This document shows, piece after piece, positions 8,895-57,274 of a stretch of 64,000 nt of DNA. The notes beneath the pieces were generated by a model. It was not told the DNA's origin. It worked only from the letters and a program-made list of their open reading frames with translations, and did no database searches. The translations under genes were made by a program, and so were the position numbers. Position 1 is the first letter of the stretch. Every line of letters begins with the position of its first letter. The stretch covers positions 1,980-65,979 of the forward strand of contig JBNJGH010000003.1 of the NCBI GenBank assembly GCA_051747585.1, written 5' to 3'. The stretch is from Candidatus Rifleibacteriota bacterium. GTDB taxonomy: Bacteria > Muiribacteriota > Ozemobacteria > Ozemobacterales > Ozemobacteraceae.

Positions 8895-9020
8895 AATCTT
8901 CTCCTCTTGGCTTGCTTTACTTATTTTACCACCATTATTTTTAAAAGTTTTTATTTTTTTAAGAGTTAGCTATGGATTAATTCTCGGTAAATCATTATTC
9001 TCTGGGTTTCAAACGTTCTG

Positions 9021-9110
9021 GTTTATTTCTTTGTGGCTTTGAGGCTTGGTGTGAAGCAAATTCTTTTCTGAAACAAGTTGTTAGTCGCTGACCCAGAATT
9101 GCTGGTAGCT
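9021..9110. repeat. Partial copy (R2) of the right-end module of the repeat family
   Basis: ttatttctttgtggctttgaggcttggtgtgaag...gttgttagtcgctgacccagaattgctgg matches the tail of R3 at 36636-36718. Confidence 0.45.
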
Positions 9111-36262: not shown

Positions 36263-36361
36263 AACTTTTTGTTTTATTGGAATGCTGATAATACTGTTTA
36301 TTGATTATTTTGTCATCAACCCTTTCGCTCAACTGAAGAATACTGAACAAAAAACCAGATA

Positions 36362-36718
36362 TTCTCGGTCAATTATTATCAGCTGGTTACCAAAATTTTT
36401 GGTTTTACTTCTTTTTGTCAAATATAGAATTTAAACCACCGAGATCACCGAGGCCACCGAGTGGATTTTTTTATCTTTTTCAGCCGTGGATTGTCCGGGG
36501 GACAATCAGCCGGCGACTTTTTGTCGCCGGCTTTCCCGGCATAAGCAAGCTCTAAGAAAAACACTGGTGCTTTTCTTAGAGCTTGCTTATGCCGGGAACA
36601 AGGCTGAAAAAGATTCTCTGTGCTGCTCTGTGAACTCTGTGGTTATTTTCTTTGTGGCTTTGAGGCTTAGTGTGAGAAATTTTCTTTTTCTTAAACGAGT
36701 TGATGGTAGCTGACCGAG
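36362..36718. repeat. Full copy (R3) of the modular palindromic repeat
   Basis: The core at 36465-36602 is bounded by the 11-bp inverted repeats ctttttcagcc / ggctgaaaaag. Hairpin H1 is at 36479-36497, H2 at 36498-36522, and H3 at 36525-36586 with a 26-bp perfect stem. The flanks are about 90% identical to R4. Confidence 0.8.
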
Positions 36719-36801
36719 AATTGCTGACAAAAAACTGTTGGTTGTTATTAATCTGTCGGTCTATGGTATAATAAGAAAAAATCTTTTAGGAGGCAGGCTG
36801 A

Positions 36802-38478
36802 ATGCGCCGCAATGCTGTTTATAAACATAAAGGTTTCACAAAGCTGGCAGATTATTATTACCGTGAAATTTTAAGCAGAAATCCGGTAACCGCCACCTGG
36901 CTCGGGGAGCATTCTTTTGATGGGTTTCTACCGGAAACCGGAGCAGAAGCCATTGAACGCAACAATTCTTTTTTGCGGGAAATGCGAAACGCTTTTCTAT
37001 CTCTGCCAGAGGGTGAACTGTCTATCGACGAACGTCTTGATCGAGACATAGCCGTTCATTTTGCTTCGACTCAATTATTTCTAGAAGAAGATCTTCAAAG
37101 GTGGAAAATGGGCCGTGATTTGGCTATGAATATTGGCGATTCTCTCTTTTTACTTTTCACCAGAGACTTTGCCCCTCTCCATGACCGGGCAGAGAAAATG
37201 ATTTTACGCTTGAAGTCTGTTCCTGCCTATCTGATGAGGAGCAAAACCCTTTTTCAAAACGTCCCTGCCCTCTGGGGAGAAATATTCCTGGAATCTATGA
37301 CTCAGCTACCAGGATTTATAGAAACAGTTCAACAAAGCATAAGTCCTCGAATTTCTCCCTTGCTGGCAGATGAATTCGAGAAAGCTGCAGCTAGCGCCAA
37401 AAAAGCAATTGCCGAGTTCAAAAACTGGTTTACCCATGCCATAATGCCTAAAGCTGAACATGACTGGGCAATGGGAGAAAATGCTTTTCAAGCCTATCTT
37501 GGCATAATTAAAACCGGTTTAAACCAGAGTGAAATTCTTGACATTGCCGATAAGACAGCCCAACAAGCAAGAATCGAGCTCGAACTTTTAACTGACGAAA
37601 TTTTAGGAAAAAGCACAGGAAGAGCTGCGGGAGCCAGGAAAGAAGCTCTTAAAAGAATCAGACACCATTGTCCTGCAAACTTTGAAGTCGCATTGGCAAC
37701 CTACCGAGATGCCATAAAAAAATGCCGTGAGTTTGTAAAAACTTCAAGCTTTGCAACTCTTCCCGAAAATGAAGAGCTTGAAATCATGGAAACCCCTGAT
37801 TTCATGTCACATTTAATTCCATTCTCTGCCTATATTGGACCTGAAAGGCATGCAAAAATTCAAAAAGGAATCTACCTTCTCACCCGGGATAAACAGGGAT
37901 CAAATTCAAGCAGATATAACTATGCTGAAATTGCAAATGCAGCCTTACACGAAGGATACCCGGGGCATCATCTTCAGTTAACCGGTCAAAATCTTCATCC
38001 CGGAAAAATCAGGATTTTTGCTGAAAGTCTTGAAATGATAGAAGGATGGGCGCACTATTGCGAAGACCAGTTAAAAGACAAAGGCTTTTATAAATCTAAA
38101 GAGGAAGCCTTTACCCACGCTCTTGACCAATTATTTAACGCGGCCCGGCTGAAAATTGACATTAATTTGCAATGCAAAACCTGGAACTTTGACAAAGCCA
38201 TGCAGTTTTTAATGGAAGAAGCAGGAATAGACAAAGCCTCTGCTTCTGCAGAGCTCAAAAGGTATTCACAGAGTCCAGGATGTCAGTTAAGCTACATCGT
38301 AGGAAAAGAGCTTTTAAATGACTTAAAACATAGCATGAAGAATAAATTGCAAAACGATTTTTGCGAAAAAGACTTTCACGATTTAATAGTCTATGAAGGC
38401 AGTATACCAACTTTCATGGCAAGAAAATATTACCCGGAAATTCTTGAGCAAAATCGCAAATCAACCGGCAGGACATGA
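36802..38478 (+). CDS. DUF885-family protein (putative metallopeptidase)
   Basis: HEGYPGHHLQ motif, and length and N-terminal region typical of DUF885. Confidence 0.55.
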   Translation: MRRNAVYKHKGFTKLADYYYREILSRNPVTATWLGEHSFDGFLPETGAEAIERNNSFLREMRNAFLSLPEGELSIDERLDRDIAVHFASTQLFLEEDLQRWKMGRDLAMNIGDSLFLLFTRDFAPLHDRAEKMILRLKSVPAYLMRSKTLFQNVPALWGEIFLESMTQLPGFIETVQQSISPRISPLLADEFEKAAASAKKAIAEFKNWFTHAIMPKAEHDWAMGENAFQAYLGIIKTGLNQSEILDIADKTAQQARIELELLTDEILGKSTGRAAGARKEALKRIRHHCPANFEVALATYRDAIKKCREFVKTSSFATLPENEELEIMETPDFMSHLIPFSAYIGPERHAKIQKGIYLLTRDKQGSNSSRYNYAEIANAALHEGYPGHHLQLTGQNLHPGKIRIFAESLEMIEGWAHYCEDQLKDKGFYKSKEEAFTHALDQLFNAARLKIDINLQCKTWNFDKAMQFLMEEAGIDKASASAELKRYSQSPGCQLSYIVGKELLNDLKHSMKNKLQNDFCEKDFHDLIVYEGSIPTFMARKYYPEILEQNRKSTGRT

Positions 38479-38479
38479 A

Positions 38480-38986
38480 ATGACTTTTCAGAAACAGCTT
38501 TTTATACCCAACAAAAAAGATTATATTACCGGAGAAAAAAGACCTGAAGTTGACTGCATAATCTGTTCCATTATTTCTAAAGCTCCAGAAGTTACCAATC
38601 TGTTAATCTGGAAAAACAAGCATGTAGCAATTTGTGCAAATCTTTACCCTTACAATGCAGGACATTTACTGTTATTCCCCACACGGCATATAAACGATCC
38701 CAGGGATTACAACAATACAGAAATTATACAGATGCAGATGCTTTTAAGCAGAACCCTCGAGATTTTAGACAAACTCTATCAACCTGCCGGTTATAACATC
38801 GGCTACAACGTGGGCGAAGCTTCAGGAGCGAGCATAGCGCACCTTCATCAGCATGTCGTTCCCAGATATCCCAGAGAACTTGGCTTTGTTGATATTACCG
38901 CCGGGGCAAAAATTATAATAGAAGACCCGCAGATAACCCTTGAAAACTTGAAAAATGCTTTTGCCAATTTCTGCTTGGAATCTTAA
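38480..38986 (+). CDS. HIT-family (histidine triad) nucleotide hydrolase/transferase
   Basis: HLHQHVVPR histidine triad. I chose the start at the ATG at 38480, immediately after the upstream stop. Confidence 0.7.
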   Translation: MTFQKQLFIPNKKDYITGEKRPEVDCIICSIISKAPEVTNLLIWKNKHVAICANLYPYNAGHLLLFPTRHINDPRDYNNTEIIQMQMLLSRTLEILDKLYQPAGYNIGYNVGEASGASIAHLHQHVVPRYPRELGFVDITAGAKIIIEDPQITLENLKNAFANFCLES

Positions 38987-40139: not shown

Positions 40140-40533
40140 AATTCGCCTTATAATGCTGGAAAATGGCGAGGCTTCATCCGGCCATATTCCCTCATCTTCT
40201 ATCCCATCTATTATGTGGGCAATCTCACAAAAAGCTGACAACTCCGAAACACTTTGGAACCTGTTAGAGGATATGGATCCGGGACTTTTCGAACATTTTT
40301 CATGCAACAATGATGATTCTCCGCTGCTTGAGGGTTTTGATGACGGCCTTCTGGTAATTAACTGGGATCACAACTGCATAGAATCATTCCAAATTTACCA
40401 GCCCCTCAAATTCTCAGGAGTCGTGATTCCCCACAACGGAAAACACCTTGATATTGAGCATGAAGAAATACCTTACAAAATTGAAAGAAATTGGAACATC
40501 ATAGATCACCACTTTGAAGAGAGCAGGCATTGA
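40129..40533 (+). CDS. Small acidic hypothetical protein
   Basis: ORF only; overlaps its neighbours by a few nt, consistent with translational coupling. Confidence 0.3.
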   Translation: MMSEIRLIMLENGEASSGHIPSSSIPSIMWAISQKADNSETLWNLLEDMDPGLFEHFSCNNDDSPLLEGFDDGLLVINWDHNCIESFQIYQPLKFSGVVIPHNGKHLDIEHEEIPYKIERNWNIIDHHFEESRH

Positions 40534-42931
40534 AAAAATGATTAATTGTCCCGGCTGTGGCGCCGTAAATAATGAAGACTCAATCAGCTGCATTGCATGC
40601 AATCGCACCCTGAAAGTAGTTTGCCCGCAATGCTCTTTAAGAAATCCTTTAACAGCTGCAATCTGCAGCCAATGCGGAAGAATTCTCAATGAAAAAAATG
40701 ATCCGAGAATTATGCAACAAAAGATCGGGGATCCGGTTAGCGACATGTATGCAGAAGATGATGGCATAACTGCGACTGATGAATTCCCGTTAAATTCCTT
40801 TTTAAAAGTTTTTATCGGCGGATTCGTTTTTGCTCTTCTTTACCTGAGTAAAATTTTAAGTGGATATCCTTTTGCTCTATTGGGCTCCGGACTTCTAAGT
40901 GGTATTCTCGCCCTCTGGGGTTTAATTGAAATTGCTTTCTGGCTGATTGAAGACAATGTAATTAATGAAAATCCGAATAAGGACAAATTACCGGATAATT
41001 ATCCTACAAAAGAAGAAGGCGGTCTTCCCGTCATAGGTGAATCTTTTGAGGAAACAGACAAAGAACTTATTAACAAAAATAAGAGCAGCGAAAAAGCACC
41101 TGAACAACCATCCTTATCACCAGCAGAAGAAGAGGCTCTTTCTGATGCGGTAAAAGCCGATACCCAAACAGCCTCAGTTAAAGAATCCGAAGAAGATTCA
41201 ACCAAAGAATTTTCCCAGGCATCTTCCGAGTCGGATAAGCCCTCCAAACCTCAATACGAAACCCTGGCCGAATTTCTTTCAGATGGTATAGAAAAAGAAA
41301 TTCAGGCAGTACAGCGCAAAATAAGACGATCACCGGAAAATTATGCACTTTTGATGCATCTGGCTCAACTTCATGAAGAGCGGGGAGAATTGAACCTTGC
41401 TCTCGAAAAGATGACAGAATGTGTAAGTTTTGAACCTGAAATTGCAGAAATTTATCTGTATTTCGGGGTGCTAAACATGAAAAGCGACCAGATAGAAGAA
41501 GCCAGAGAAGCCTTTTATAAAGCCCTGGACCTCAATCGCTTTATGTCAAAAGCTTTTTATCAACTTGGCATACTTGAACGCGGCTCCGGCGACCTGCAGA
41601 AAGCAAGAAAAAACCTCCAGAAATGTATACAGCTTTCTCCAGACGATGCCTATGCTCATTACCAGCTGGGTATGGTTTACCGGGAAATGGGAGATTCAGG
41701 ACTTGCAATGATGGAGCTCAAAAGAGCAACCATACTTCACCCAACTGACTCTTACGGTCACAGTAAACTGGGACAAATTTACCAGCAAAACGGTCAATAC
41801 GATCTATCAATAAGTGAATATTCCCAAGCTTTGAGTCTAAAACCCCACGATCCGTTTGTGCTTGAAAAACTGGCGGAGGTCGTTGCAGCAAAGGGCCTGC
41901 CCGCCAGAGCCGCAGAATTGTTTCAAGAAGCACTGGCAAAGCAGTTTCATCCCAAAATTGAAACAATGATATCTCTGGGCAAAATGCTGAGAAAACTTGA
42001 AGAATTTGAAGATCTCGAGCTCCTTGCAGACGAAATTCTCAGGCTCTCAGAAAACAATTCAGATGGTTTATTTTTAAAGGCATACGCTGTTTTACAACAA
42101 AACCGCGAGCAGGAAGCAATTGAATTATTTGAAAAGCTGAGCGAGTATCCTCATGCAAGCTATGAAGCCTGGCTGGAGCTCGGAAAACTATACCAGAATG
42201 AAGGAAGAGAAGACAAAGCTCTTTCCGCCTTTATAAGAGCTTCGACCAATGCGCCTGACCAGGCCGGAATCTGGAATAATATTGGAATACTGCTCGGCAA
42301 TCAAAAAGCTTATGAAGAAGCTTTAAAAGCCTTTAAAAAAGCGGCGAGCTTTGACTATTCAGATCAACAGATAGCAGACAATCTAAAAGCCGTTGAAAAG
42401 AAACTCGAATCCAGTTGCAGTCGAATTATCGAAAGTCGCAAAGCACAGCTGCAAAAAGAGCCTGATGACTTAAATGCATACATAGAAATGGGTCGCGCCT
42501 ACGAAGTTTTGCAAAGACCAGATGATGCGCTAATGGCATATCAACGTCTGCTGGCTATCAATCCGGAGCATGTTGACGGTCTTATCTGTTATGCTGAGCT
42601 TTTACGAAAACGTGGTAAGTTAAAAATGGCAATGCGCTGCTATCGCGAAATTCTTAAATTACAGCCTGAAAACGCACGGACTCATTTGTATCTGGTGCAG
42701 GCAAATCTTAATTTAGGGTTTTTGAATGAAGCCTTGAGGCATGCAGTTACTGCACAAAAACTTAACCAGGATGACCCCAGAACCCATTTTCTTCTGGGCA
42801 AAATTTATTTTGCCAAAGGCCTTGCCCCCAGAGCTCTTAAAGAATTTACCGTTGTCGCTTCAACAGCTTCTGATCCAGATATGATAAGCTGGGCCGAGTT
42901 AATGAGAAGACGACTTTCAAGGACAGTTTAA
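40514..42931 (+). CDS. Double zinc-ribbon / TM / TPR-repeat protein
   Basis: N-terminal CPGCG...CIAC...CPQC...CSQCG, then two TM helices, then about 600 aa of TPR repeats. Confidence 0.6.
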   Translation: MKRAGIEKMINCPGCGAVNNEDSISCIACNRTLKVVCPQCSLRNPLTAAICSQCGRILNEKNDPRIMQQKIGDPVSDMYAEDDGITATDEFPLNSFLKVFIGGFVFALLYLSKILSGYPFALLGSGLLSGILALWGLIEIAFWLIEDNVINENPNKDKLPDNYPTKEEGGLPVIGESFEETDKELINKNKSSEKAPEQPSLSPAEEEALSDAVKADTQTASVKESEEDSTKEFSQASSESDKPSKPQYETLAEFLSDGIEKEIQAVQRKIRRSPENYALLMHLAQLHEERGELNLALEKMTECVSFEPEIAEIYLYFGVLNMKSDQIEEAREAFYKALDLNRFMSKAFYQLGILERGSGDLQKARKNLQKCIQLSPDDAYAHYQLGMVYREMGDSGLAMMELKRATILHPTDSYGHSKLGQIYQQNGQYDLSISEYSQALSLKPHDPFVLEKLAEVVAAKGLPARAAELFQEALAKQFHPKIETMISLGKMLRKLEEFEDLELLADEILRLSENNSDGLFLKAYAVLQQNREQEAIELFEKLSEYPHASYEAWLELGKLYQNEGREDKALSAFIRASTNAPDQAGIWNNIGILLGNQKAYEEALKAFKKAASFDYSDQQIADNLKAVEKKLESSCSRIIESRKAQLQKEPDDLNAYIEMGRAYEVLQRPDDALMAYQRLLAINPEHVDGLICYAELLRKRGKLKMAMRCYREILKLQPENARTHLYLVQANLNLGFLNEALRHAVTAQKLNQDDPRTHFLLGKIYFAKGLAPRALKEFTVVASTASDPDMISWAELMRRRLSRTV

Positions 42932-42932
42932 T

Positions 42933-44084
42933 GTGAATAGTTCTAAACTTATAACAGCTTTTATTGTTTTTTTATTTTTTTCATCTACTTATTCTGCAAA
43001 TTGCCAATTCAGCAACGAATTAGAGTCAGACGTCTCGGTTAGAGATCTACTCGAAAATTATGAACGTAACCCCAAGGCCGAAACCTATTACTTAATGGCC
43101 CTGGCCGAAACCCAGAAAAACAATATAGAAAAAGCTGAAAAGGCGATAAAAACCGGACTTGCAATCAATCCTCGTTCGGTCAGACTGTTGAATCTGAAAG
43201 GGGCAATCAAAGCCAGACAAGGGCAACCGGCAGCTGCCAGAAGAATTTTTCTGGGTGTTTTACAGCTCGATCCGGAAAACGAGTATGCCCAAACGTCTTT
43301 AAGATCGGTTGAAAAACAGTTACAGCCACGAAGAAAGCGTTTGCCGCTTTTAGAAAAATCACCGGATAACAAAGTGGACTCTTCTCCTGACAGCCCTCTG
43401 AAAAAAACTGTAAAAAAACCGAAGGTTGAGAAAAAAATACTACAATCTTCTTACTTCGAAGAAGTTAAAGATAAGCAAAATTGTTATTATGGCATGGCTT
43501 CGATTGACAGGGCCTATAAAAGATATTTAGATTCGAACCCCACTAATAAAGAATTTTCTTTGAACAAATTAACCGAAGAGGGGTATCTAACTTCAAAACC
43601 TATATGCCCTGATTCAGGGCAATACTCCTACAACGACTCCGATGTCGTATGCAGTGAACATGGCAATAAAACAGAACTCGGTGGTGAAGTAACTTCAGTT
43701 TTTAACGATTATAACCGCGGTATTAAAGCAAAATTGAGCCATAATTACCTCGATGCCCTTAAAGCTTTTGAACAGGTGGTAGTTCTTTATCCGCGCTGGG
43801 CTGAAGCTCATTACCAGCTTGGAGACACCCTGTTCAGACTGGGAGAAGCCGACGCCGCAATGGTTTCTTTAAGAAAGTGTTTGAAACACAACCCAGATAA
43901 TCTTGACGCGAAACTTCTTCTTGCAAACATTTACTTTAAAGTCGGTCAGAAATCTGCTTCTTTAAAGATTCTCGATGAAATTATAAAAGAAAAGAAAGGT
44001 ACGGTATACGGCCTTTCAGCCAAAAGTATTGCAAGATCAATACGTTCTGGCAGAAACTATTATCAGGTATTTCCTCCCAATTAA
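42933..44084 (+). CDS. Secreted TPR-repeat protein
   Basis: Signal peptide and TPR repeats. GTG start. Confidence 0.5.
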   Translation: MNSSKLITAFIVFLFFSSTYSANCQFSNELESDVSVRDLLENYERNPKAETYYLMALAETQKNNIEKAEKAIKTGLAINPRSVRLLNLKGAIKARQGQPAAARRIFLGVLQLDPENEYAQTSLRSVEKQLQPRRKRLPLLEKSPDNKVDSSPDSPLKKTVKKPKVEKKILQSSYFEEVKDKQNCYYGMASIDRAYKRYLDSNPTNKEFSLNKLTEEGYLTSKPICPDSGQYSYNDSDVVCSEHGNKTELGGEVTSVFNDYNRGIKAKLSHNYLDALKAFEQVVVLYPRWAEAHYQLGDTLFRLGEADAAMVSLRKCLKHNPDNLDAKLLLANIYFKVGQKSASLKILDEIIKEKKGTVYGLSAKSIARSIRSGRNYYQVFPPN

Positions 44085-44095
44085 AGCTGCTTGAA

Positions 44096-44959
44096 ATGAA
44101 AAAGAAATTAAAAAAATTAGCATTTATATGTCATCCGACTCGATCATCGCTTCCACCGATCATTAAAGAGCTGATTTGCTGGGCTGAGGAAAATGATATC
44201 GGAGTAAGACTCACTCCCCGAATGGCTCAAATAGTTCAACGACCTGAACTTGGACTTCCCCGTCAGGATATGGCTCGCGAAATCGATATGGTTATAGTTC
44301 TTGGTGGAGACGGTTCTATTCTTGAAACCACTAGAGCTTTTGCCGCAGACGGAATTCCGGTAGCAGGTCTCAACCTTGGTCATCTAGGTTTTTTGACGCT
44401 GGATGAACCAAAAAATGCAATAAGCACCCTTGAAAAATTGCGGGACGGTAAATTTCGTATCGAAAACCGTATGATGTTGCAGGCAGTCGTTTACCGCAAC
44501 GGCAGACAAATGTTTCGGGGAATCGCTTTAAACGATGTCGTAATTCAAAAAGGCACAATGCTGAGAGTTATTAACATTGATGTAGCTATTTCAGGTGCCA
44601 AAGTAAATACCTATCATGGAGACGGGATCATTTTCGCCACACCGACAGGCTCAACTGCATATTCGTTGTCGGCAGGCGGTCCAATTGTTCCACCCTGGGT
44701 TAATGTTATGGTGATTTGTCCGCTTAATTGCCACACACTAAGTGCCAGACCGGTAATAACTTCGGATCAGGAATACATCAGCGCAAAAATCAGCTGCATT
44801 CATTCCAAGGTAGATCTGGTTCTCGATGGACAGGAAGGCTTCAGACTGCTGGATGAAGATATTATCGAAGTATCGCGAGCACAAGAGTTGGGAAAAATCG
44901 TGGTATTCAAATCGCGAAATTTCTTTGAAGTACTTAGTAAAAAAATGAACTGGGGTTAA
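44096..44959 (+). CDS. nadK: NAD+ kinase
   Basis: GGDGSIL ... NLGHLGFLT motifs. Confidence 0.85.
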   Translation: MKKKLKKLAFICHPTRSSLPPIIKELICWAEENDIGVRLTPRMAQIVQRPELGLPRQDMAREIDMVIVLGGDGSILETTRAFAADGIPVAGLNLGHLGFLTLDEPKNAISTLEKLRDGKFRIENRMMLQAVVYRNGRQMFRGIALNDVVIQKGTMLRVINIDVAISGAKVNTYHGDGIIFATPTGSTAYSLSAGGPIVPPWVNVMVICPLNCHTLSARPVITSDQEYISAKISCIHSKVDLVLDGQEGFRLLDEDIIEVSRAQELGKIVVFKSRNFFEVLSKKMNWG

Positions 44960-44968
44960 AAAGAAAAA

Positions 44969-46852
44969 ATGAGATTTAAATTTTTTTCTATTCTGTTACT
45001 ATTATCTCTTTTTATTCCGTCCAGCTTATCTGCTCAGGGCGATTTTGATATTAAGGCTATAAGACCCGCAATTAAAGAAAACGGGCATTTTCTGGCTCAG
45101 ATTAAAGTCGTCGTTGGAGAAGATCACCTTATTTATCGCGAACAAACGAGTATTACCAGTGAATCAGATAAAATCGAGATCGTATGGCCAGATACCAGAA
45201 TAAAGCCTGACCCCTTTACCGGCAAAAAAGTAGAGGTTTTTGACGCAGGCAGTCATATTTTTAAAATACTGGTATTTAGCGAAAATCTTTCTAAAGAAAC
45301 AATCAAGCTCAAATTTAGTTACCAGGGCTGCTCAAATAAAACCTGTTTTTTTCCTACCAGTAAGACACTTAACTTTTCAGTTAAAAATGAGCCAACAACA
45401 AATCAACCGACTGACACCTCAAACAGCCCCTTTCAAATTTCCACACCCGGTCTTATGTCTTTAAATCTTGAGTCCGATAAAGAGCCTGAGGCTGAAACAG
45501 AAAAAACCAAAAAAAAAACCAGTTTCAAGCACCACAAAAAAATTACAGTAAATAATGCTGCAAAAGTTGAAGAAGAAAGCTTTGATACCGGCTTCGACCA
45601 AATGTCTTCAGTTTTAAAAGAACATGGTATTTTCTGGGTGCTGATTTTATCATTCCTTGGCGGCTTGCTGATAAGTTTAACTCCATGCGTTTACCCTATG
45701 ATTCCGATAACTCTTTCGATTATAGGCAGTCGGAAAGAAAATCAAAGTTTTTATAAAGGCCTCGGACTTTCAGCCATTTATGTCGCCGGCCTCTCGCTAA
45801 CTTATGCCCTGCTTGGACTAACCGCTGCCACTTTTGGAGCTCAGATTCGCAGCATACTTCAAGGAACTGCTTTTCAAGCAGCTATTTCAGTGATTTTCTT
45901 TTTACTAGCGCTGTCGATGTTTGATATTTTTATGATTCAGGCTCCAACTTCTTTGCGCAATAAATTAAGTAACATAAAAAAGACCGGGCTTTTCGGAATT
46001 TTTATTATGGGTCTGGTTTCCGGGCTGATGGCCTCTCCATGTGTTGCTGCACCTCTTGCAGGAATTCTTGCTTTTATTGCAGCTACCGGCAGTCAAACGA
46101 TGGGCTTCTTTATGCTTCTGCTGTTTGCCTGGGGTATGAGCATACCCTTGCTTTTAATTGGTGCCTTTTCTGGTTCGTTAAACGCATTACCCAAAGCAGG
46201 GGAATGGATGAACCGGGTCAAAGAATTTTATGGTTTCCTGCTCATGGGTGCTTCGCTTTATTTTGCCAGACCACTTATTGGCGAAACCTGGACAGATCTG
46301 GGTGTTGCGCTTCTTTTGGCAGCATTTGCAGCTTTTCTTGGCCTCTTCAATAAGCTCGAACAAAACTCAACTTTTTTGCAAAAATCATTTAAAGCATTCG
46401 GCATAGTAACAATTGCGGTGGCATCTGCATTTGCAATCAGCGCAACAGCCAGATGGGGCAGCCTGTGTATGCCCGGCCCTGCAAACGAAAGATTGCAACA
46501 ATCACAGACTATAAGCTGGAATTACGACCTCGACTCGGCCCTAAAAGAAGCTGCGGGCAAAGACCAATTAATCTTTGTCGACTTCCGGGCCGACTGGTGT
46601 ACTATTTGTCGGGAACTCGAAGAGCGGGTTTTCCCCCGCCCTGCGATTGCAAACCTTTTAAATAAAATGGTGGCTGTCAAAATTGATGCAACCACCACCA
46701 GCCACGAAATCAAGCACCTTAACCAGAAATATTCTGTTGTCGGTCTCCCCACTCTTCTTATTCTTGACTCTCAAGGCAACGAAATTAAACGAATGGTCGG
46801 AAACATCAGCACTCCCGACCTGAAATCAATCCTGGAAAAAGCCCTGAGATAA
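44969..46852 (+). CDS. dsbD: Thiol:disulfide interchange protein DsbD-like (CcdA membrane core plus C-terminal thioredoxin)
   Basis: Signal peptide, N-terminal beta domain, TM core with conserved Cys, and C-terminal WCTICRELE thioredoxin motif. Confidence 0.75.
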   Translation: MRFKFFSILLLLSLFIPSSLSAQGDFDIKAIRPAIKENGHFLAQIKVVVGEDHLIYREQTSITSESDKIEIVWPDTRIKPDPFTGKKVEVFDAGSHIFKILVFSENLSKETIKLKFSYQGCSNKTCFFPTSKTLNFSVKNEPTTNQPTDTSNSPFQISTPGLMSLNLESDKEPEAETEKTKKKTSFKHHKKITVNNAAKVEEESFDTGFDQMSSVLKEHGIFWVLILSFLGGLLISLTPCVYPMIPITLSIIGSRKENQSFYKGLGLSAIYVAGLSLTYALLGLTAATFGAQIRSILQGTAFQAAISVIFFLLALSMFDIFMIQAPTSLRNKLSNIKKTGLFGIFIMGLVSGLMASPCVAAPLAGILAFIAATGSQTMGFFMLLLFAWGMSIPLLLIGAFSGSLNALPKAGEWMNRVKEFYGFLLMGASLYFARPLIGETWTDLGVALLLAAFAAFLGLFNKLEQNSTFLQKSFKAFGIVTIAVASAFAISATARWGSLCMPGPANERLQQSQTISWNYDLDSALKEAAGKDQLIFVDFRADWCTICRELEERVFPRPAIANLLNKMVAVKIDATTTSHEIKHLNQKYSVVGLPTLLILDSQGNEIKRMVGNISTPDLKSILEKALR

Positions 46853-46892
46853 TTAGAACAATCAGCAATTCTCAGTGAACTGTTATTAGCTG

Positions 46893-47195
46893 GTTTTTAA
46901 AATCTTTGGTTTTATTTCTTTCTGTCAAATATAGAATTTAAACCACCGAGATCACTGAGGCCACCGAGTGGATTGTTTTATCTTTTTCAGCCTTGTTCCC
47001 GGCAGCAGCAAGCCCTCAGAAAAACATGAGTGCTTTTCTGAGGGCTTGCTGCTGCCGGGAAAGCCGGGCGGTGAAACCGCCGGCTGATTGTCCCCAGGAC
47101 AATCAGCCGGCTGAAAAAGATGCTCTGTGATTCTCTGAGAGCTCTGTGGTTAATTTCTTTGCGGCTTTGAGGCTTGGTGGTGTGAGGAATCTTAA
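46893..47195. repeat. Full copy (R4) of the modular palindromic repeat
   Basis: Core at 46982-47119, bounded by the same 11-bp inverted repeats. H3 is at 46998-47059 and carries the different but fully compensated stem cccggcagcagcaagccctcag. The H1/H2 block lies on the opposite side of H3 relative to R3. Confidence 0.8.
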
Positions 47196-47199
47196 ATAA

Positions 47200-47964
47200 T
47201 TATAGTCCTGTTGGCAGGTCTATAAATTCATATTCCAGCGCGAACTTTTCGGCCAGATGTTTGGCCAGAGCTTGAACTCCAAAAACCTCAGTCGCATAAT
47301 GTCCCGCCGAAACCATGTTTACTCCTACATCTCGGCAGGCTGCAACCCCCTGGTGAATAATTTCACCGGTTAAAATTAAATCGATTTCGCCGTTATAAAC
47401 CTGCTCAGCATTTACAGAGCTCCAGCCACCGCCGGAAGTAATTCCAATATTTTGAACTTTTTCTTTACCAAAATCCAGATTGGTATTGATTGGGCCAATC
47501 AATTTTTCGATTTTATTTTTAAACTCATTTAGTGATACAGGTTGCTTGAGTCTGGCAAGTACACCCACAGGATTTCTGCCTGCTCCAAAAGGGCCTTTTA
47601 CTTCTGCTTGAAGTAAGTTGGCCATTTGAGCATTATTACCAAAAATCAAATGCGCATCAAGCGGTAGATGCATGGCAAAAAGATTAAGATCGCCCTTCAT
47701 AAGCGATTTAACCATTCGTTGTTTTATGCGGTTAAGGCTTGTCCATTCTCCGCCTTTCCAGAACAGGCCGTGATGAACAAATGCAAAATCACCGTTTTTT
47801 TTGATTGCCTTATCAAAGAACTCAACAGTTGCATCAACGCCGGCAATTATTTTTTTTATTTCTTCTTTTCCTTCAAATTGCAGGCCATTGTATGAATAAT
47901 CGGGAAAATTGTAATCTGCAAAAATTTCATTAATATATTTAATCAGTTCATTTCGATTTACCAT
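47200..47964 (-). CDS. Nif3-family dinuclear metal-centre protein (YqfO/YbgI-like)
   Basis: Conserved Nif3 N-terminus (ADYNFPDYSYNGLQFEG) and the HHG motif. Confidence 0.8.
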   Translation of the reverse strand: MVNRNELIKYINEIFADYNFPDYSYNGLQFEGKEEIKKIIAGVDATVEFFDKAIKKNGDFAFVHHGLFWKGGEWTSLNRIKQRMVKSLMKGDLNLFAMHLPLDAHLIFGNNAQMANLLQAEVKGPFGAGRNPVGVLARLKQPVSLNEFKNKIEKLIGPINTNLDFGKEKVQNIGITSGGGWSSVNAEQVYNGEIDLILTGEIIHQGVAACRDVGVNMVSAGHYATEVFGVQALAKHLAEKFALEYEFIDLPTGL

Positions 47965-51920: not shown

Positions 51921-51968
51921 CCAATTTTAGATCAGTAATTCCCGGCCAAAGAAAAATCGACTGCTTTT

Positions 51969-52515
51969 AAGAATGAAAATGCATCACACTAAGCCTCAGA
52001 GCCACGGCGTTCACAAAGAAGAAATAAAATAAAAAAAGTGCATCTCGCAAAGATCGCCAGGTTCGCTAAGTCCGCAACGAAGAAATATTTCAACAAGCTT
52101 CAGACTTTTTCATTACAAATTCTTAGTATATTTTTAACCACAGAGCCCGCAGAGCTGCACAGAGAATCTTTTCAGCCATTGTTCCGTTTGTCAACAAGGG
52201 TTCAGAAAAACACTGGTGTTTTTCTGAACCCTTGCTGACAAACGGAAAGCCGGACGGTGAAACCGCCGGCTGATTGTCCCATGGACAATCAAGGGCAGAA
52301 AAAGAAAAAAACAACTCGGTGACCTCAGTGATCTCTGTGGTTTAAATTCTTTGCGCTCTTTGCGGCTTGGCGAGATGTTTTTTTCAGGATTCGACAACGA
52401 TGACGGGCAGGATGCCCTAATGCTGGGGCACCTGAGGATGCAGTGCGCCCCAATGCAACGATTACGATAACCGCTTCGCTGAGCACGAGCACGATTTTTC
52501 TTTTGTGTGAGGCAA
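51969..52515. repeat. Extended copy (R5) of the modular repeat, about 550 bp, in reverse orientation relative to R3 and R4
   Basis: Same end modules as R3/R4 plus an extra conserved insert of about 120 bp. Core at 52167-52304, with H3 at 52182-52247 (stem ttccgtttgtcaacaagggttcag). The tail shares the gacgggcaggatgccctaatgctggggcac and cgattacgataaccgcttcgctgagcacgagcacga modules with R7 and R1. Confidence 0.8.
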
Positions 52516-53523
52516 TTATTTTTTGCGGGTTTTTTTGGTTTTTCGCTTTGCTTTATATTTGCCGGTTGGTTCTGAGACTTTGTTCTTTTCTGCCAGCTGT
52601 TCGATTTGTTTAATAGAAAGCTCGGTAATTTCACTTATTTCTTCAAAAGACTTGCCCCTGGCAATCATTTTAAGAGCAATTTTCTCGCATCTTAATTGAT
52701 CACCCTTTTCTATACCTTCTTCAAGGCCTTCTTTGCGGCCTTCTTTGCGGCCTTCTTTGCGGCCTTCTTCAAGGCCCTCGAATTTGCCGACACCATAAGT
52801 TGAGTCAACCATGCTGGCCTGGTAACTGAGATCGGCAAGGTAAGCTTCGTATTCCTGGCGCTCTTTATCGCTCATTTTTAAAATGTCGAGCTTTTTTTGC
52901 GCCTTTTTTAAGCCCTTAGCCTTGAAATTGTCTTTGATTTTTCCGTTTTTGAGAAAATATATCCATTCATCGAGGGTATTTTTTGCCACATCGTCAAAGT
53001 TTTTGACCTTGATTACATACATTTCAGGAAAAAGCTGTGAAGGATGGTCTTTTTTGAGGCATTTTCGCTGCAGCGGACTCAGGGTAAGCTCTTCGTTTTT
53101 ATGAACGCCCTTAAAAGTGGTAGTGCCATGATAGATATAATCGCTACCCTTGCCGAGATCGAAATAAACTATGGCTACAGAAATAACCTTAACTATTTCA
53201 GAGTATTTCTGACCCTCTTTAAAGTGCTCGGTTATGGCTTTGGCAACCCCGAACAAAACCCGCTGCAAAAAGTCTATTTCCCTTTGATATTGAACCTCAA
53301 TTAAAATTATTTCGCCTTTGTGGGTTTTGCATTTTAAATCGAGCCGGCTGAATTTATCATGTGATGTTTCTTTGTTGCTTTCGCTTTCAAGAATCTCGAC
53401 AATGGTGATTTTATTGCCAAGCAACTCAGTCAGAAAACCTTCTAAAATATCAAAATTGGCTTTACTGCGTAAAAGCCGTTTCATCGCCCAGTCAAAACTG
53501 ACAAGTTTTCGAGTTGAAGCCAT
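52516..53523 (-). CDS. Rpn-family recombination-promoting nuclease / putative transposase (PD-(D/E)XK, Transposase_31 / YhgA-like)
   Basis: N-terminal FDWAMKRLL ... LIEVQYQ PD-(D/E)XK core. The C-terminal short-period repeat EGRKEGRKEGRKEGLEEGIEKG is characteristic of Rpn proteins. Confidence 0.8.
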   Translation of the reverse strand: MASTRKLVSFDWAMKRLLRSKANFDILEGFLTELLGNKITIVEILESESNKETSHDKFSRLDLKCKTHKGEIILIEVQYQREIDFLQRVLFGVAKAITEHFKEGQKYSEIVKVISVAIVYFDLGKGSDYIYHGTTTFKGVHKNEELTLSPLQRKCLKKDHPSQLFPEMYVIKVKNFDDVAKNTLDEWIYFLKNGKIKDNFKAKGLKKAQKKLDILKMSDKERQEYEAYLADLSYQASMVDSTYGVGKFEGLEEGRKEGRKEGRKEGLEEGIEKGDQLRCEKIALKMIARGKSFEEISEITELSIKQIEQLAEKNKVSEPTGKYKAKRKTKKTRKK

Positions 53524-53640
53524 TGTTTACCTCTGAATGCAGTGTTCTTGACTCTAATTTTACGCTGATGCAATTTAAATAGCAAATTTACCTTAAATTC
53601 CCAGCAACATGCGTGTTAACTGCTATCAGCTGCTCTCAAG

Positions 53641-54210
53641 AAAGAATATGCATCACGCTAAGCCTCAGAGCCACGAGGTTCACAAAGAAGAAATCAAATA
53701 AAAAAAGTGCATCTCGCAAAGATCGCCAGGTTCGCTAAGTCCGCAATAAAGAAATGTTTCAACAAGCTTCGGATTTTTTCATTTCAAATTCATAGTAGAT
53801 TATAAACCACAGAGTCCTCAAAGGTGCACAGAGGATCTTTTTCAGCCTTGGATTGTCCTTTGGACAATCAGCCGGCGGTTTCACCGTCCGGCTTTCCCTT
53901 CATTAATAACAGGGTAGAAAAGCACCAGTGTTTTTCTACCCTGTTATTAATGAAGGGAACAATGGCTGAAAAAGATTAAGAAATCAGCTCTGTGATCTCG
54001 GTGATCTCTGTGGTTTAAATTCTTAGCGCTCTTTGCGGCTTGGCGAGATGTTTTTTTTCAGGATTCGACAACGATGACGGGCAGGATGCCCTAATGCTGG
54101 GGCGCCTGAGGATGCACTATGCCCCACGATTACGATGACGATTACCGCTTCGCTGAGCACGAGCACGAGCACGAGTTTTCTTTTTGCCTTAGCGGCTTTG
54201 GGTGAGGCAA
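53641..54210. repeat. Extended copy (R6) of the modular repeat; a direct repeat of R5 on the other side of the Rpn gene
   Basis: About 95% identical to R5 outside the core. Core at 53837-53974, with H1 at 53851-53869, H2 at 53870-53893 and H3 at 53896-53957. Its stem (cccttcattaataacagggtag) is unrelated to R5's, and its loop is inverted relative to R3. Confidence 0.8.
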
Positions 54211-56794: not shown

Positions 56795-56870
56795 TGGTTT
56801 TGACGGGCAGGATGCCCTAATACTGGGGCACATGAGGATACAAAGTGCCCCAGTGCGACTAACGCTCAAC
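56795..56870. repeat. Partial copy (R7) of the gacgggcaggatgccctaat...ctggggcac...gtgccccag module
   Basis: Matches R5 at 52390-52460 and R6 at 54070-54130. Confidence 0.5.
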
Positions 56871-56876
56871 CACCAA

Positions 56877-56913
56877 ATAAAAAAGCGGCTCGTCTCGAGC
56901 CGCTTTTTTTTTT
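56877..56913. terminator. Bidirectional rho-independent terminator
   Basis: A-run, then the stem gcggctcg / cgagccgc with loop tct, then a 10-T run. It lies just downstream of the minus-strand FmdB gene. Confidence 0.7.
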
Positions 56914-56923
56914 AATTTTTATA

Positions 56924-57274
56924 TTATAAAAAGGCTGCGGACGGAACCGTTGTATCGCTTTTAGTTGAAGTAGATGTGTCGCTTTTTGATTCAGATGAAG
57001 GTTTAGCCTCTTTTTTCTCTCCGCTTTTTTCCTTGCCTTTGTCATCTTTTGATTTTGCAGACTCGTTATCTCTCTTTTTCGCTTCAAGATAACCGGAGTC
57101 GCGATAATCAGTCGAATAAAAACCAGACCCTTTAAAAATAACCGAGCTGGCTGACATCAGCTTCTGACCGACCCCGTTACAATCCGGGCAATGCTGTGGA
57201 TCTTTACAGGACATTGAATGAAAGGCATCAAATACTTTATTGCATTTTTTACATTTATAACTATAGGTAGGCAT
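56924..57274 (-). CDS. FmdB-family zinc-ribbon protein with a Ser/Lys-rich tail
   Basis: MPTYSYKCKKCNKVFD ... CPDCNG CxxC-x17-CxxC zinc ribbon at the N-terminus. Confidence 0.65.
   Translation of the reverse strand: MPTYSYKCKKCNKVFDAFHSMSCKDPQHCPDCNGVGQKLMSASSVIFKGSGFYSTDYRDSGYLEAKKRDNESAKSKDDKGKEKSGEKKEAKPSSESKSDTSTSTKSDTTVPSAAFL

Follow-up and report, generated by a model that had tools for sequence, protein, structure and literature searches.

A mobile nested palindrome of Candidatus Riflebacteria with a core that has been inverted more than once

Introduction

Four full copies of a ~220-nt non-coding nested palindrome, here called R, are present in the 64-kb stretch of DNA that was analysed in this study (the window), and the inner modules of these copies do not all lie in the same order and orientation. 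An initial annotation of the interval 46982-47119, which is the core of copy R4, had offered two mechanisms for this behaviour, namely the inversion of a site-specific invertible segment and template switching driven by the palindrome itself. The locus raises the question of whether the core of R is a programmed switch or has been flipped passively, as a by-product of the copying of palindromes.

The organism is assigned to Candidatus Riflebacteria on the basis of NIF3 homologues. A series of JGI metagenomes contains a sister species (93% amino acid identity for NIF3 and 96% for Rpn), and P0241 is 100% identical to a protein of the window. The window itself derives from a single MAG assembly, and six distinct R copies were available for the analysis in total.

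Results and Discussion

Architecture of R

R is composed of a long outer arm, a short outer arm, a 13-bp inverted repeat (IR13) and a core of three hairpins (H1, H2 and H3). All four copies in the window are intergenic, being located in the gaps of a map of 51 ORFs:

36426-36645, plus strand: R3, with IR13 at 36473-36485 and 36602-36614, H1 at 36489-36507, H2 at 36509-36531 and H3 at 36533-36598
46933-47154, plus strand: R4, with the long arm at 46933-46979, IR13 at 46980-46992, its inverted partner at 47109-47121 and the short arm at 47122-47154
46996-47061, 47063-47084 and 47086-47104, plus strand: H3, H2 and H1 in the core of R4
52134-52350, minus strand: R5, with degenerate inverted repeats at 52165-52177 and 52294-52306, H3 at 52182-52247, H2 at 52249-52270 and H1 at 52272-52290
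53802-54023, minus strand: R6, with IR13 at 53835-53847 and 53964-53976, H1 at 53851-53869, H2 at 53871-53892 and H3 at 53894-53959

The long arm consists of AGAATTTAAACCAC and, after it, two to four copies of a 9-nt unit of the type ATCACNGAG, and the short arm is its imperfect complement. Samples of the sister species differ in how many 9-nt units (ATCACAGAG) their long arm carries (L007, L010, L012 and L013 versus L001, L009 and L014), the distance from the start of the arm to IR13 being either 41 or 50 nt, which represents a small tandem-repeat polymorphism inside R. The terminal inverted repeats of R are ~18 nt long, and its two ends, AGAATTTAAACCACMGAG and CTCTGTGGTTTAnAATTT, are paired with each other when the DNA is folded. 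IR13 reads ATCTTTTTCAGCC on one side of the core and GGCTGAAAAAGAT on the other. The 11-mer CTTTTTCAGCC has exactly six exact matches in the window, which form three plus/minus pairs, each 127 nt apart (36475/36602, 46982/47109 and 53837/53964). The perfect inverted repeats that had been described as bounding the core are thus present in R3, R4 and R6, where the six 11-mers extend to 13 bp, but not in R5, where the repeats are degenerate (tcttttcagcc and ggcagaaaaag). The sequence of IR13 is conserved in three of the four window copies and in all copies of the sister species, and the stem of H3 varies.

Between the two IR13 repeats lies a core of 116 nt. In this core, H1 is GATTGTCC-nnn-GGACAATC and H2 is GCCGGCGG-TTTCA-CCG(T/C)CCGGC, with a conserved bulged T or C on one side. 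H3 is built of two arms of 32 nt, in which the base (TTCCC) is conserved and a middle part of ~17 nt is variable; its tip, AGAAAAACAC-TG-GTGCTTTTCT, is conserved as well, and H3 carries a conserved mismatch. As single-stranded DNA, R is predicted to fold into a closing stem with a three-hairpin junction at -79 to -82 kcal/mol and a z-score of about -15 (-82 kcal/mol and z = -14.6 for R4).

Orientation of the core and of the H3 tip

Because the outer arms are unequal in length, a common frame for all R copies is well defined: the distance from AACCAC to the 11-mer is 41-50 nt in the long arm and 30-32 nt in the short arm. In this arms frame the H1-H2 block, whose orientation is unambiguous because the bulge in H2 is one-sided, lies to the left of H3 in R3 and R5, and to the right of H3 and reverse-complemented in R4 and R6. 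This is the arrangement that had been read from the window initially, and global alignments in the arms frame bear it out. Between R3 and R4 the left flank is 88% identical in direct orientation, and the core is 80.5% identical as reverse complement versus 50% when aligned directly. The corresponding values for R5 and R6 are 88.6% and 85.6% for the two flanks, and 80% versus 48% for the core. When R6 is compared with the orthologous copy of the sister species (L001), the right flank is 81% identical, and the core is 87% identical as reverse complement versus 50% directly. Both R copies that flank the orthologous Rpn gene in the sister species read H1-H2-H3, and their closest relative is the core of R6. 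An inversion of the whole element between its outer terminal repeats was rejected, since the long arm keeps its side in sister copies.

The tip (apex) of H3 occurs in two states: A-CAC-TG-GTG-C with an A.C mismatch (state 1), and G-CAC-CA-GTG-T with a G.T wobble (state 2). These are exact reverse complements of each other that co-vary at four positions; the mismatch and the loop therefore change together. In the arms frame, state 1 is found in R3, R4 and R6. R5 has state 2 with one extra substitution, in agreement with the earlier observation of similar H3 loops in R3, R4 and R6, and of a sequence like the reverse complement in R5. A copy of the sister species at L017:1559-1778 (L017b) has the order H1-H2-H3 and apex state 2, like R5. 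The six distinct copies are arranged as follows:

R3: H1-H2 block X+ (order H1-H2-H3), H3 tip Ap+ (state 1)
L001 type: H1-H2 block X+, H3 tip Ap+
R5: H1-H2 block X+, H3 tip Ap- (state 2), with CA in the loop and an A-T pair in place of the mismatch; the long arm has the higher coordinates
L017b: H1-H2 block X+, H3 tip Ap-
R4: H1-H2 block X- (order H3-H2'-H1'), H3 tip Ap+
R6: H1-H2 block X-, H3 tip Ap+, long arm at the high-coordinate end

Three of the four possible configurations were observed, as had been claimed, and the fourth (X-/Ap-) is absent from the six distinct copies, a number too small for this absence to be significant. The pairs R3/R4, R5/R6 and R6/sister-species orthologue, which are closest by their flanks or by their cores, are all opposite in the core, and at least two in-place flips are therefore required. 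Likewise, the orientation at the R6 locus differs between the two species, which implies at least two independent core flips. Judged from these alignments, the core has been inverted in place more than once, the independent flips dating probably from after the speciation. At least two changes of the tip state are implied among the R copies as well. In both of the closest sister pairs, the side of the H1-H2 block changed and the orientation of the H3 tip with respect to the arms remained unchanged.

The orientation at orthologous loci had been named in the initial annotation as a way to tell an active inversion system from static rearrangements. In this comparison, R6 is opposite to its sister-species orthologue, and within the sister species all 16 instances, in consensus contigs of 11 metagenome assemblies, show one and the same orientation, although a minority orientation would not be visible in such contigs. 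These contigs do vary in other respects, namely in the number of 9-nt units and in the loop and bulge bases of H2.

Co-evolution of the H3 arms

Across seven sequences, the 30 base pairs of H3 (210 cells) include no broken pair and a single G.U pair, and double changes were observed in 17 of the 30 pairs. In both R3/R4 and R6/L001, 4 of the 30 pairs differ; all eight differences are two-sided and none is one-sided. The divergence of the H3 arms (about 13%) is similar to that of the left flanks of R3 and R4 (about 12%), and it is not above the divergence of the right flanks of R6 and L001 (about 19%). These alignments show a perfect co-evolution of the two arms of H3. If selection for pairing alone were responsible, slower evolution of the arms and wobble intermediates would be expected. 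Pairing of the Watson-Crick type only, at about the rate of the flanks, therefore argues for arm-to-arm copying at the DNA level. For template switching between the arms of an inverted repeat, homogenisation of the arms together with inversion of the spacer is documented (PMC5941160 and PMC8604942), and PMC12928735 describes recurrent flip-flop inversions at chloroplast hairpins with inverted repeats of 11-24 bp.

Insertion sites and mobility of R

A second MITE-like family in the window, here called S, is ~130 nt long with the ends TCAGCAATTCTC, and it is the host into which R has been nested. S is found at three positions:

8975-9104, plus strand: solo S lacking an internal R, which serves as the paralogous empty site of the R insertions seen in R3 and R4
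about 36350-36727: S around R3
46856-47195, plus strand: 340-nt insertion in which R4 is preceded by the left half of S and followed by its right half in truncated form; the orthologous site in the sister species lacks it

At the orthologous R4 site of the sister species (L001) there is no insertion, and the stop codons of NIF3 and DsbD abut (7330/7331). The 340-nt composite insertion is flanked by the 7-bp sequence ATAATTA at 46849-46855 and 47196-47202, which may be a target-site duplication, but the right end of S is truncated there. Where R lies inside S, only an imperfect duplication of ~9-17 nt was found (TTTCTTTNTG region). The orthologous R3 site (L027) is without R as well, and it contains another small element, whose ends are the same (CAGCAATTCTC). 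This variant of S (L027:2131-2275) has another interior, and it recurs at L016/L017:16534-16619.

From the empty orthologous sites of R4 and R3, together with the solo S, it follows that R is a nested, MITE-like insertion. This pattern of occupied and empty sites shows R to be mobile. R3 and R4 both represent R inserted into S, and their H3 stems, with four compensated differences, are the most similar ones. They descend from one S::R composite, which spread to two sites in the lineage of the window after its split from the sister species. R is short and non-coding, has terminal inverted repeats, occurs in dispersed copies (four in the 64 kb of the window and three distinct loci in the sister species), and shows presence or absence at orthologous and paralogous sites, all of which are features of MITEs. 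Neither the window nor 383 kb of loci yielded a transposase with ends that match those of R.

The Rpn gene and its flanking repeats

R5 and R6 are located on either side of a gene that is the sole recombination-related gene found in the window:

52516-53523, minus strand: Rpn-family PD-(D/E)XK nuclease gene (PF12784; JGI name 'predicted transposase/invertase, TIGR01784')
51956-52494, plus strand: downstream member of a ~540-nt direct repeat, which carries R5
53625-54168: partner of this repeat, which carries R6

The two repeats that flank the Rpn gene are 79% identical overall, with the core inverted. In the sister species, the direct repeats at L001:160-770 and 1946-2556 are nearly identical, each contains an R copy, and together they bracket an Rpn/PDDEXK_2 gene. 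This suggests gene conversion, or a unit of repeat and gene that may be duplicated or mobile. The contigs of several samples break inside the direct repeats around Rpn. L008:2504-3996 and L017:6174-7621 share their upstream context (a cation ATPase, a 62-aa ORF and an R copy), and downstream of this context Rpn P0121 is found in one sample and a 316-aa paralogue in others. Here, Rpn paralogues may have recombined at the R copy, or else the assembly is chimeric.

Several other repeats were seen in this neighbourhood. A 12-nt tandem repeat at 52731-52765, within the Rpn coding sequence on the minus strand, encodes GRKEGRKEGRKE with three GRKE units. A 59-nt motif of two hairpins (GGGCAGGATGCCC and GGGGCAC...GTGCCCC) occurs three times (52401-52459, 54075-54133 and 56801-56859), with RNA fold z-scores of -2.3 to -4.8; its third copy is intergenic and without R. 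Beside this third copy, and upstream of a zinc-ribbon gene (56924-57274, minus strand), lies a GC-rich hairpin at 56880-56912, GCGGCTCG-TCT-CGAGCCGC, which lies between an A-run and a T-run and looks like a bidirectional intrinsic terminator.

Possible mechanisms of the core inversion

We consider it probable that R is a non-autonomous, MITE-like nested palindrome, the core flips of which are a passive by-product of palindrome copying and not a programmed switch. The arms of an inverted repeat would be copied or recombined during replication, for which intra- or inter-strand template switching, or recombination between short repeats on an extruded hairpin, are candidate routes. Copying of the arms would both homogenise them and invert the spacer, and a single process could thereby give rise to the perfect arms and to the flips. 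At the level of the outer arm pair, IR13 and the outer arms would flip the whole 116-nt core; at the level of the inner pair, the 32-nt arms of H3 would flip the H3 tip only. Starting from an ancestor of type X+ with apex state 2, one event per lineage would produce all six distinct copies. Such flips would be rare, on an evolutionary timescale, and they would not be regulated. It is for these reasons that we infer a mechanism of template switching or recombination.

Some observations sit less easily with this passive explanation. IR13 is, with its 13 bp, short for homologous recombination, which counts against it, and the strict conservation of IR13 versus the free variation of the H3 stem hints at recognition by a protein. 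Moreover, as the H1-H2 block switched side with the tip unchanged, the nested model needs either two events or a particular ancestral state. If the H1-H2 block alone is taken to move, four events are required on the six copies, just as in the model of nested inversions; with this equal number of events the two models are inseparable here, and six distinct copies are too few to separate them statistically. Nevertheless, of the two mechanisms proposed in the initial annotation, the passive, palindrome-driven one is better supported. Inversion of a segment bounded by inverted repeats is well supported by the sister copies and by the orthologous locus, and the evidence leans away from a site-specific switch.

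Such a switch would involve a trans-acting site-specific recombinase that acts on IR13 and flips the core at many loci, thereby changing a strand-specific signal, for example an RNA hairpin, a terminator or a binding site. The perfect and conserved IR13 beside a variable H3 stem is in line with this idea, as are the recurrence of the core flips and the asymmetric marks of the core (the bulged T or C of H2 and the mismatch of H3), which are of the kind that proteins read. However, an invertase gene did not turn up: no serine or tyrosine recombinase was detected in a Pfam scan of 37 window ORFs, nor among the precomputed Pfam assignments of the syntenic stretch of the sister species, through the orthologues of which the ORFs 38393-38986, 40514-42931, 42933-44084 and 44096-44959 were exclusively judged. 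The two cores that were scanned, R3 and R4, contain no promoter or terminator consensus, and an orientation-dependent terminator at H2 was dropped from consideration on this basis. R copies are found in unrelated contexts, R4 being placed between two convergent stop codons with no obvious target, and only 116 nt separate the two repeats. In addition, the orientation is the same in 16 of the 16 instances from the 11 sister-species assemblies, despite other strain-level differences. A programmed switch therefore appears quite unlikely to us. An enzyme could also be involved in a different manner, if the Rpn nuclease, or a putative transposase of the element, acted on the folded four-way junction or cruciform and set or reset the orientation during nuclease-driven recombination or transposition, with an outcome like that of parvovirus hairpin transfer. 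The PD-(D/E)XK fold is found in several junction-resolving enzymes, and R as single-stranded DNA folds into just such a closing stem with three hairpins (z about -15). R5 and R6 flank the Rpn gene within the ~540-nt direct repeats, this arrangement is repeated in the sister species, and another R copy is located upstream of an Rpn paralogue. On the other hand, R3, R4 and L017b do not adjoin Rpn genes, and no R copy is present near the Rpn paralogues P0124, P0127, P0126 and P0130; inspection of P0122, P0123, P0124, P0126, P0127 and P0130 yielded only two further R loci, both in L017. A single duplication of the gene with its upstream region can explain the association with Rpn, and the R6 flip occurred at a fixed locus and not in transposition. 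We therefore regard this possibility as unlikely. Its most specific form, in which R copies are the natural DNA substrates of the adjacent Rpn PD-(D/E)XK enzyme and are actively flipped or moved by it, as a multi-locus, structure-directed inversion system in Riflebacteria, seems highly improbable; here the enzyme would recognise IR13, the bulged base of H2 and the A.C mismatch of H3 on the extruded junction. If the flips were enzyme-driven after all, the poorly understood Rpn/PDDEXK_2 'transposase' family would gain a defined substrate.

The core might also be an independent mobile element of small size, bounded by 13-bp terminal inverted repeats, that was inserted, or excised and then reinserted, in either orientation into an element made of the arms. 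It does have perfect terminal inverted repeats of its own, and nested MITE-like elements exist in this genome, as exemplified by R inside S. Yet BLAST searches of 383 kb with whole R elements gave no element consisting of arms only, and a covariance model applied to 243 kb gave no core-only copy. Sister copies share both flanks and have related H3 stems, such that near-identical cores would have had to insert independently, and the H3 tip flips apart from the core. This makes a separate core element very unlikely. Lastly, palindromes are known to confuse de Bruijn graphs, and the orientations could be artefacts of a short-read MAG. The window does come from a single MAG, in which it lies on an NCBI contig of 77 kb, and the arms of H3 are perfect repeats of 32 nt, so the orientation of the tip could stay ambiguous at small k. 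IR13, at 13 bp, is below the k of any assembler, however, and the orientation of the core is therefore supported by reads. Furthermore, the inverted cores differ by 13-20% in sequence from their sisters, the configuration in the sister species is identical in 11 independent assemblies, and the four variable positions of the tip change in concert, to the exact reverse complement. We thus deem an assembly artefact exceedingly improbable.

Comparison with known systems

No match at the gathering threshold was obtained with Rfam 15 over the whole window, and in E-value mode the only matches lay far below the threshold and were to microRNA precursors and further unrelated families. When the H1-H2 junction, the H3 tip and the IR13 pair were scanned for as exact patterns, there was no occurrence in GTDB representative genomes or in metagenome and viral contigs, the sole exact-pattern match in public contigs being one chance palindrome in a Bacteroidales MAG. 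BLAST searches of plasmids and phages found no match to R, and a covariance model of the core detected no further R cores in 243 kb of related loci. REP/REPIN elements with a RAYT were considered and rejected, as neither the ORFs of the window nor the genes of the syntenic stretch in the sister species contain a Y1/HUH transposase domain, and as R is much larger than a REP doublet.

Correia elements, ERIC sequences and BIME/REP mosaics are bacterial MITEs or palindromic intergenic repeats. Like these, R is short, non-coding, multi-copy and intergenic, has terminal inverted repeats, folds into a long hairpin and is present or absent at orthologous sites; the alternating orientation of its modules gives it a mosaic character, as in BIMEs. 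Unlike these, R shows no sequence relationship to entries in Rfam or to the records searched, no cognate transposase was found in the material described above, and it combines a three-hairpin junction, closed by a conserved 13-bp repeat, with orientation isomers.

Site-specific invertible promoters and switches are known from fimS, Hin/Gin and the invertons of Bacteroides. With these R shares short inverted repeats around a segment that occurs in both orientations, and the presence of several dispersed copies. It differs from invertons in that neither a nearby invertase gene nor, in the two cores scanned, a promoter or other orientation-dependent cargo was found, in that the assemblies show no heterogeneity, and in that the spacer is shorter than is typical. 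The genome of AAV is linear and single-stranded, with terminal repeats at its ends that flip by hairpin transfer in each round of replication. R resembles such a parvovirus terminal repeat in having a closing stem around small palindromes, the order of which is reversed between two isomers, but R is chromosomal, internal and stable across strains.

Close parallels exist with the inversion of spacers and the correction of quasi-palindromes by template switching in replication (PMC5941160 and PMC8604942), in which, as in R, inverted repeats of 11-32 bp form the exact limits of the tract that is inverted. As in these cases and in the chloroplast inversions, the arms are perfectly complementary and the flips recur independently in related sequences; the arms of R are homogenised, and the inverted tract is the spacer between them. 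The outer spacer of R is, with 116 nt, longer than the 5-50 bp given for chloroplast flip-flops (Kim and Lee 2005, as cited in PMC12928735). R is furthermore set apart from both groups by its two nested levels of flipping, i.e. the 116-nt core and the ~10-nt tip, inside a mobile multi-copy element, and by a mechanism that is deduced from the copies themselves. R is an undescribed bacterial palindromic mobile repeat that shows inverted-repeat-mediated flip-flop. If the passive reading is right, R provides a clean natural example from bacteria in which perfect hairpin arms and recurrent flipping of the spacer occur together in a mobile palindromic repeat. It calls for caution in the annotation, alignment and assembly of such repeats, and adds comparative evidence for template switching beyond the model organisms.
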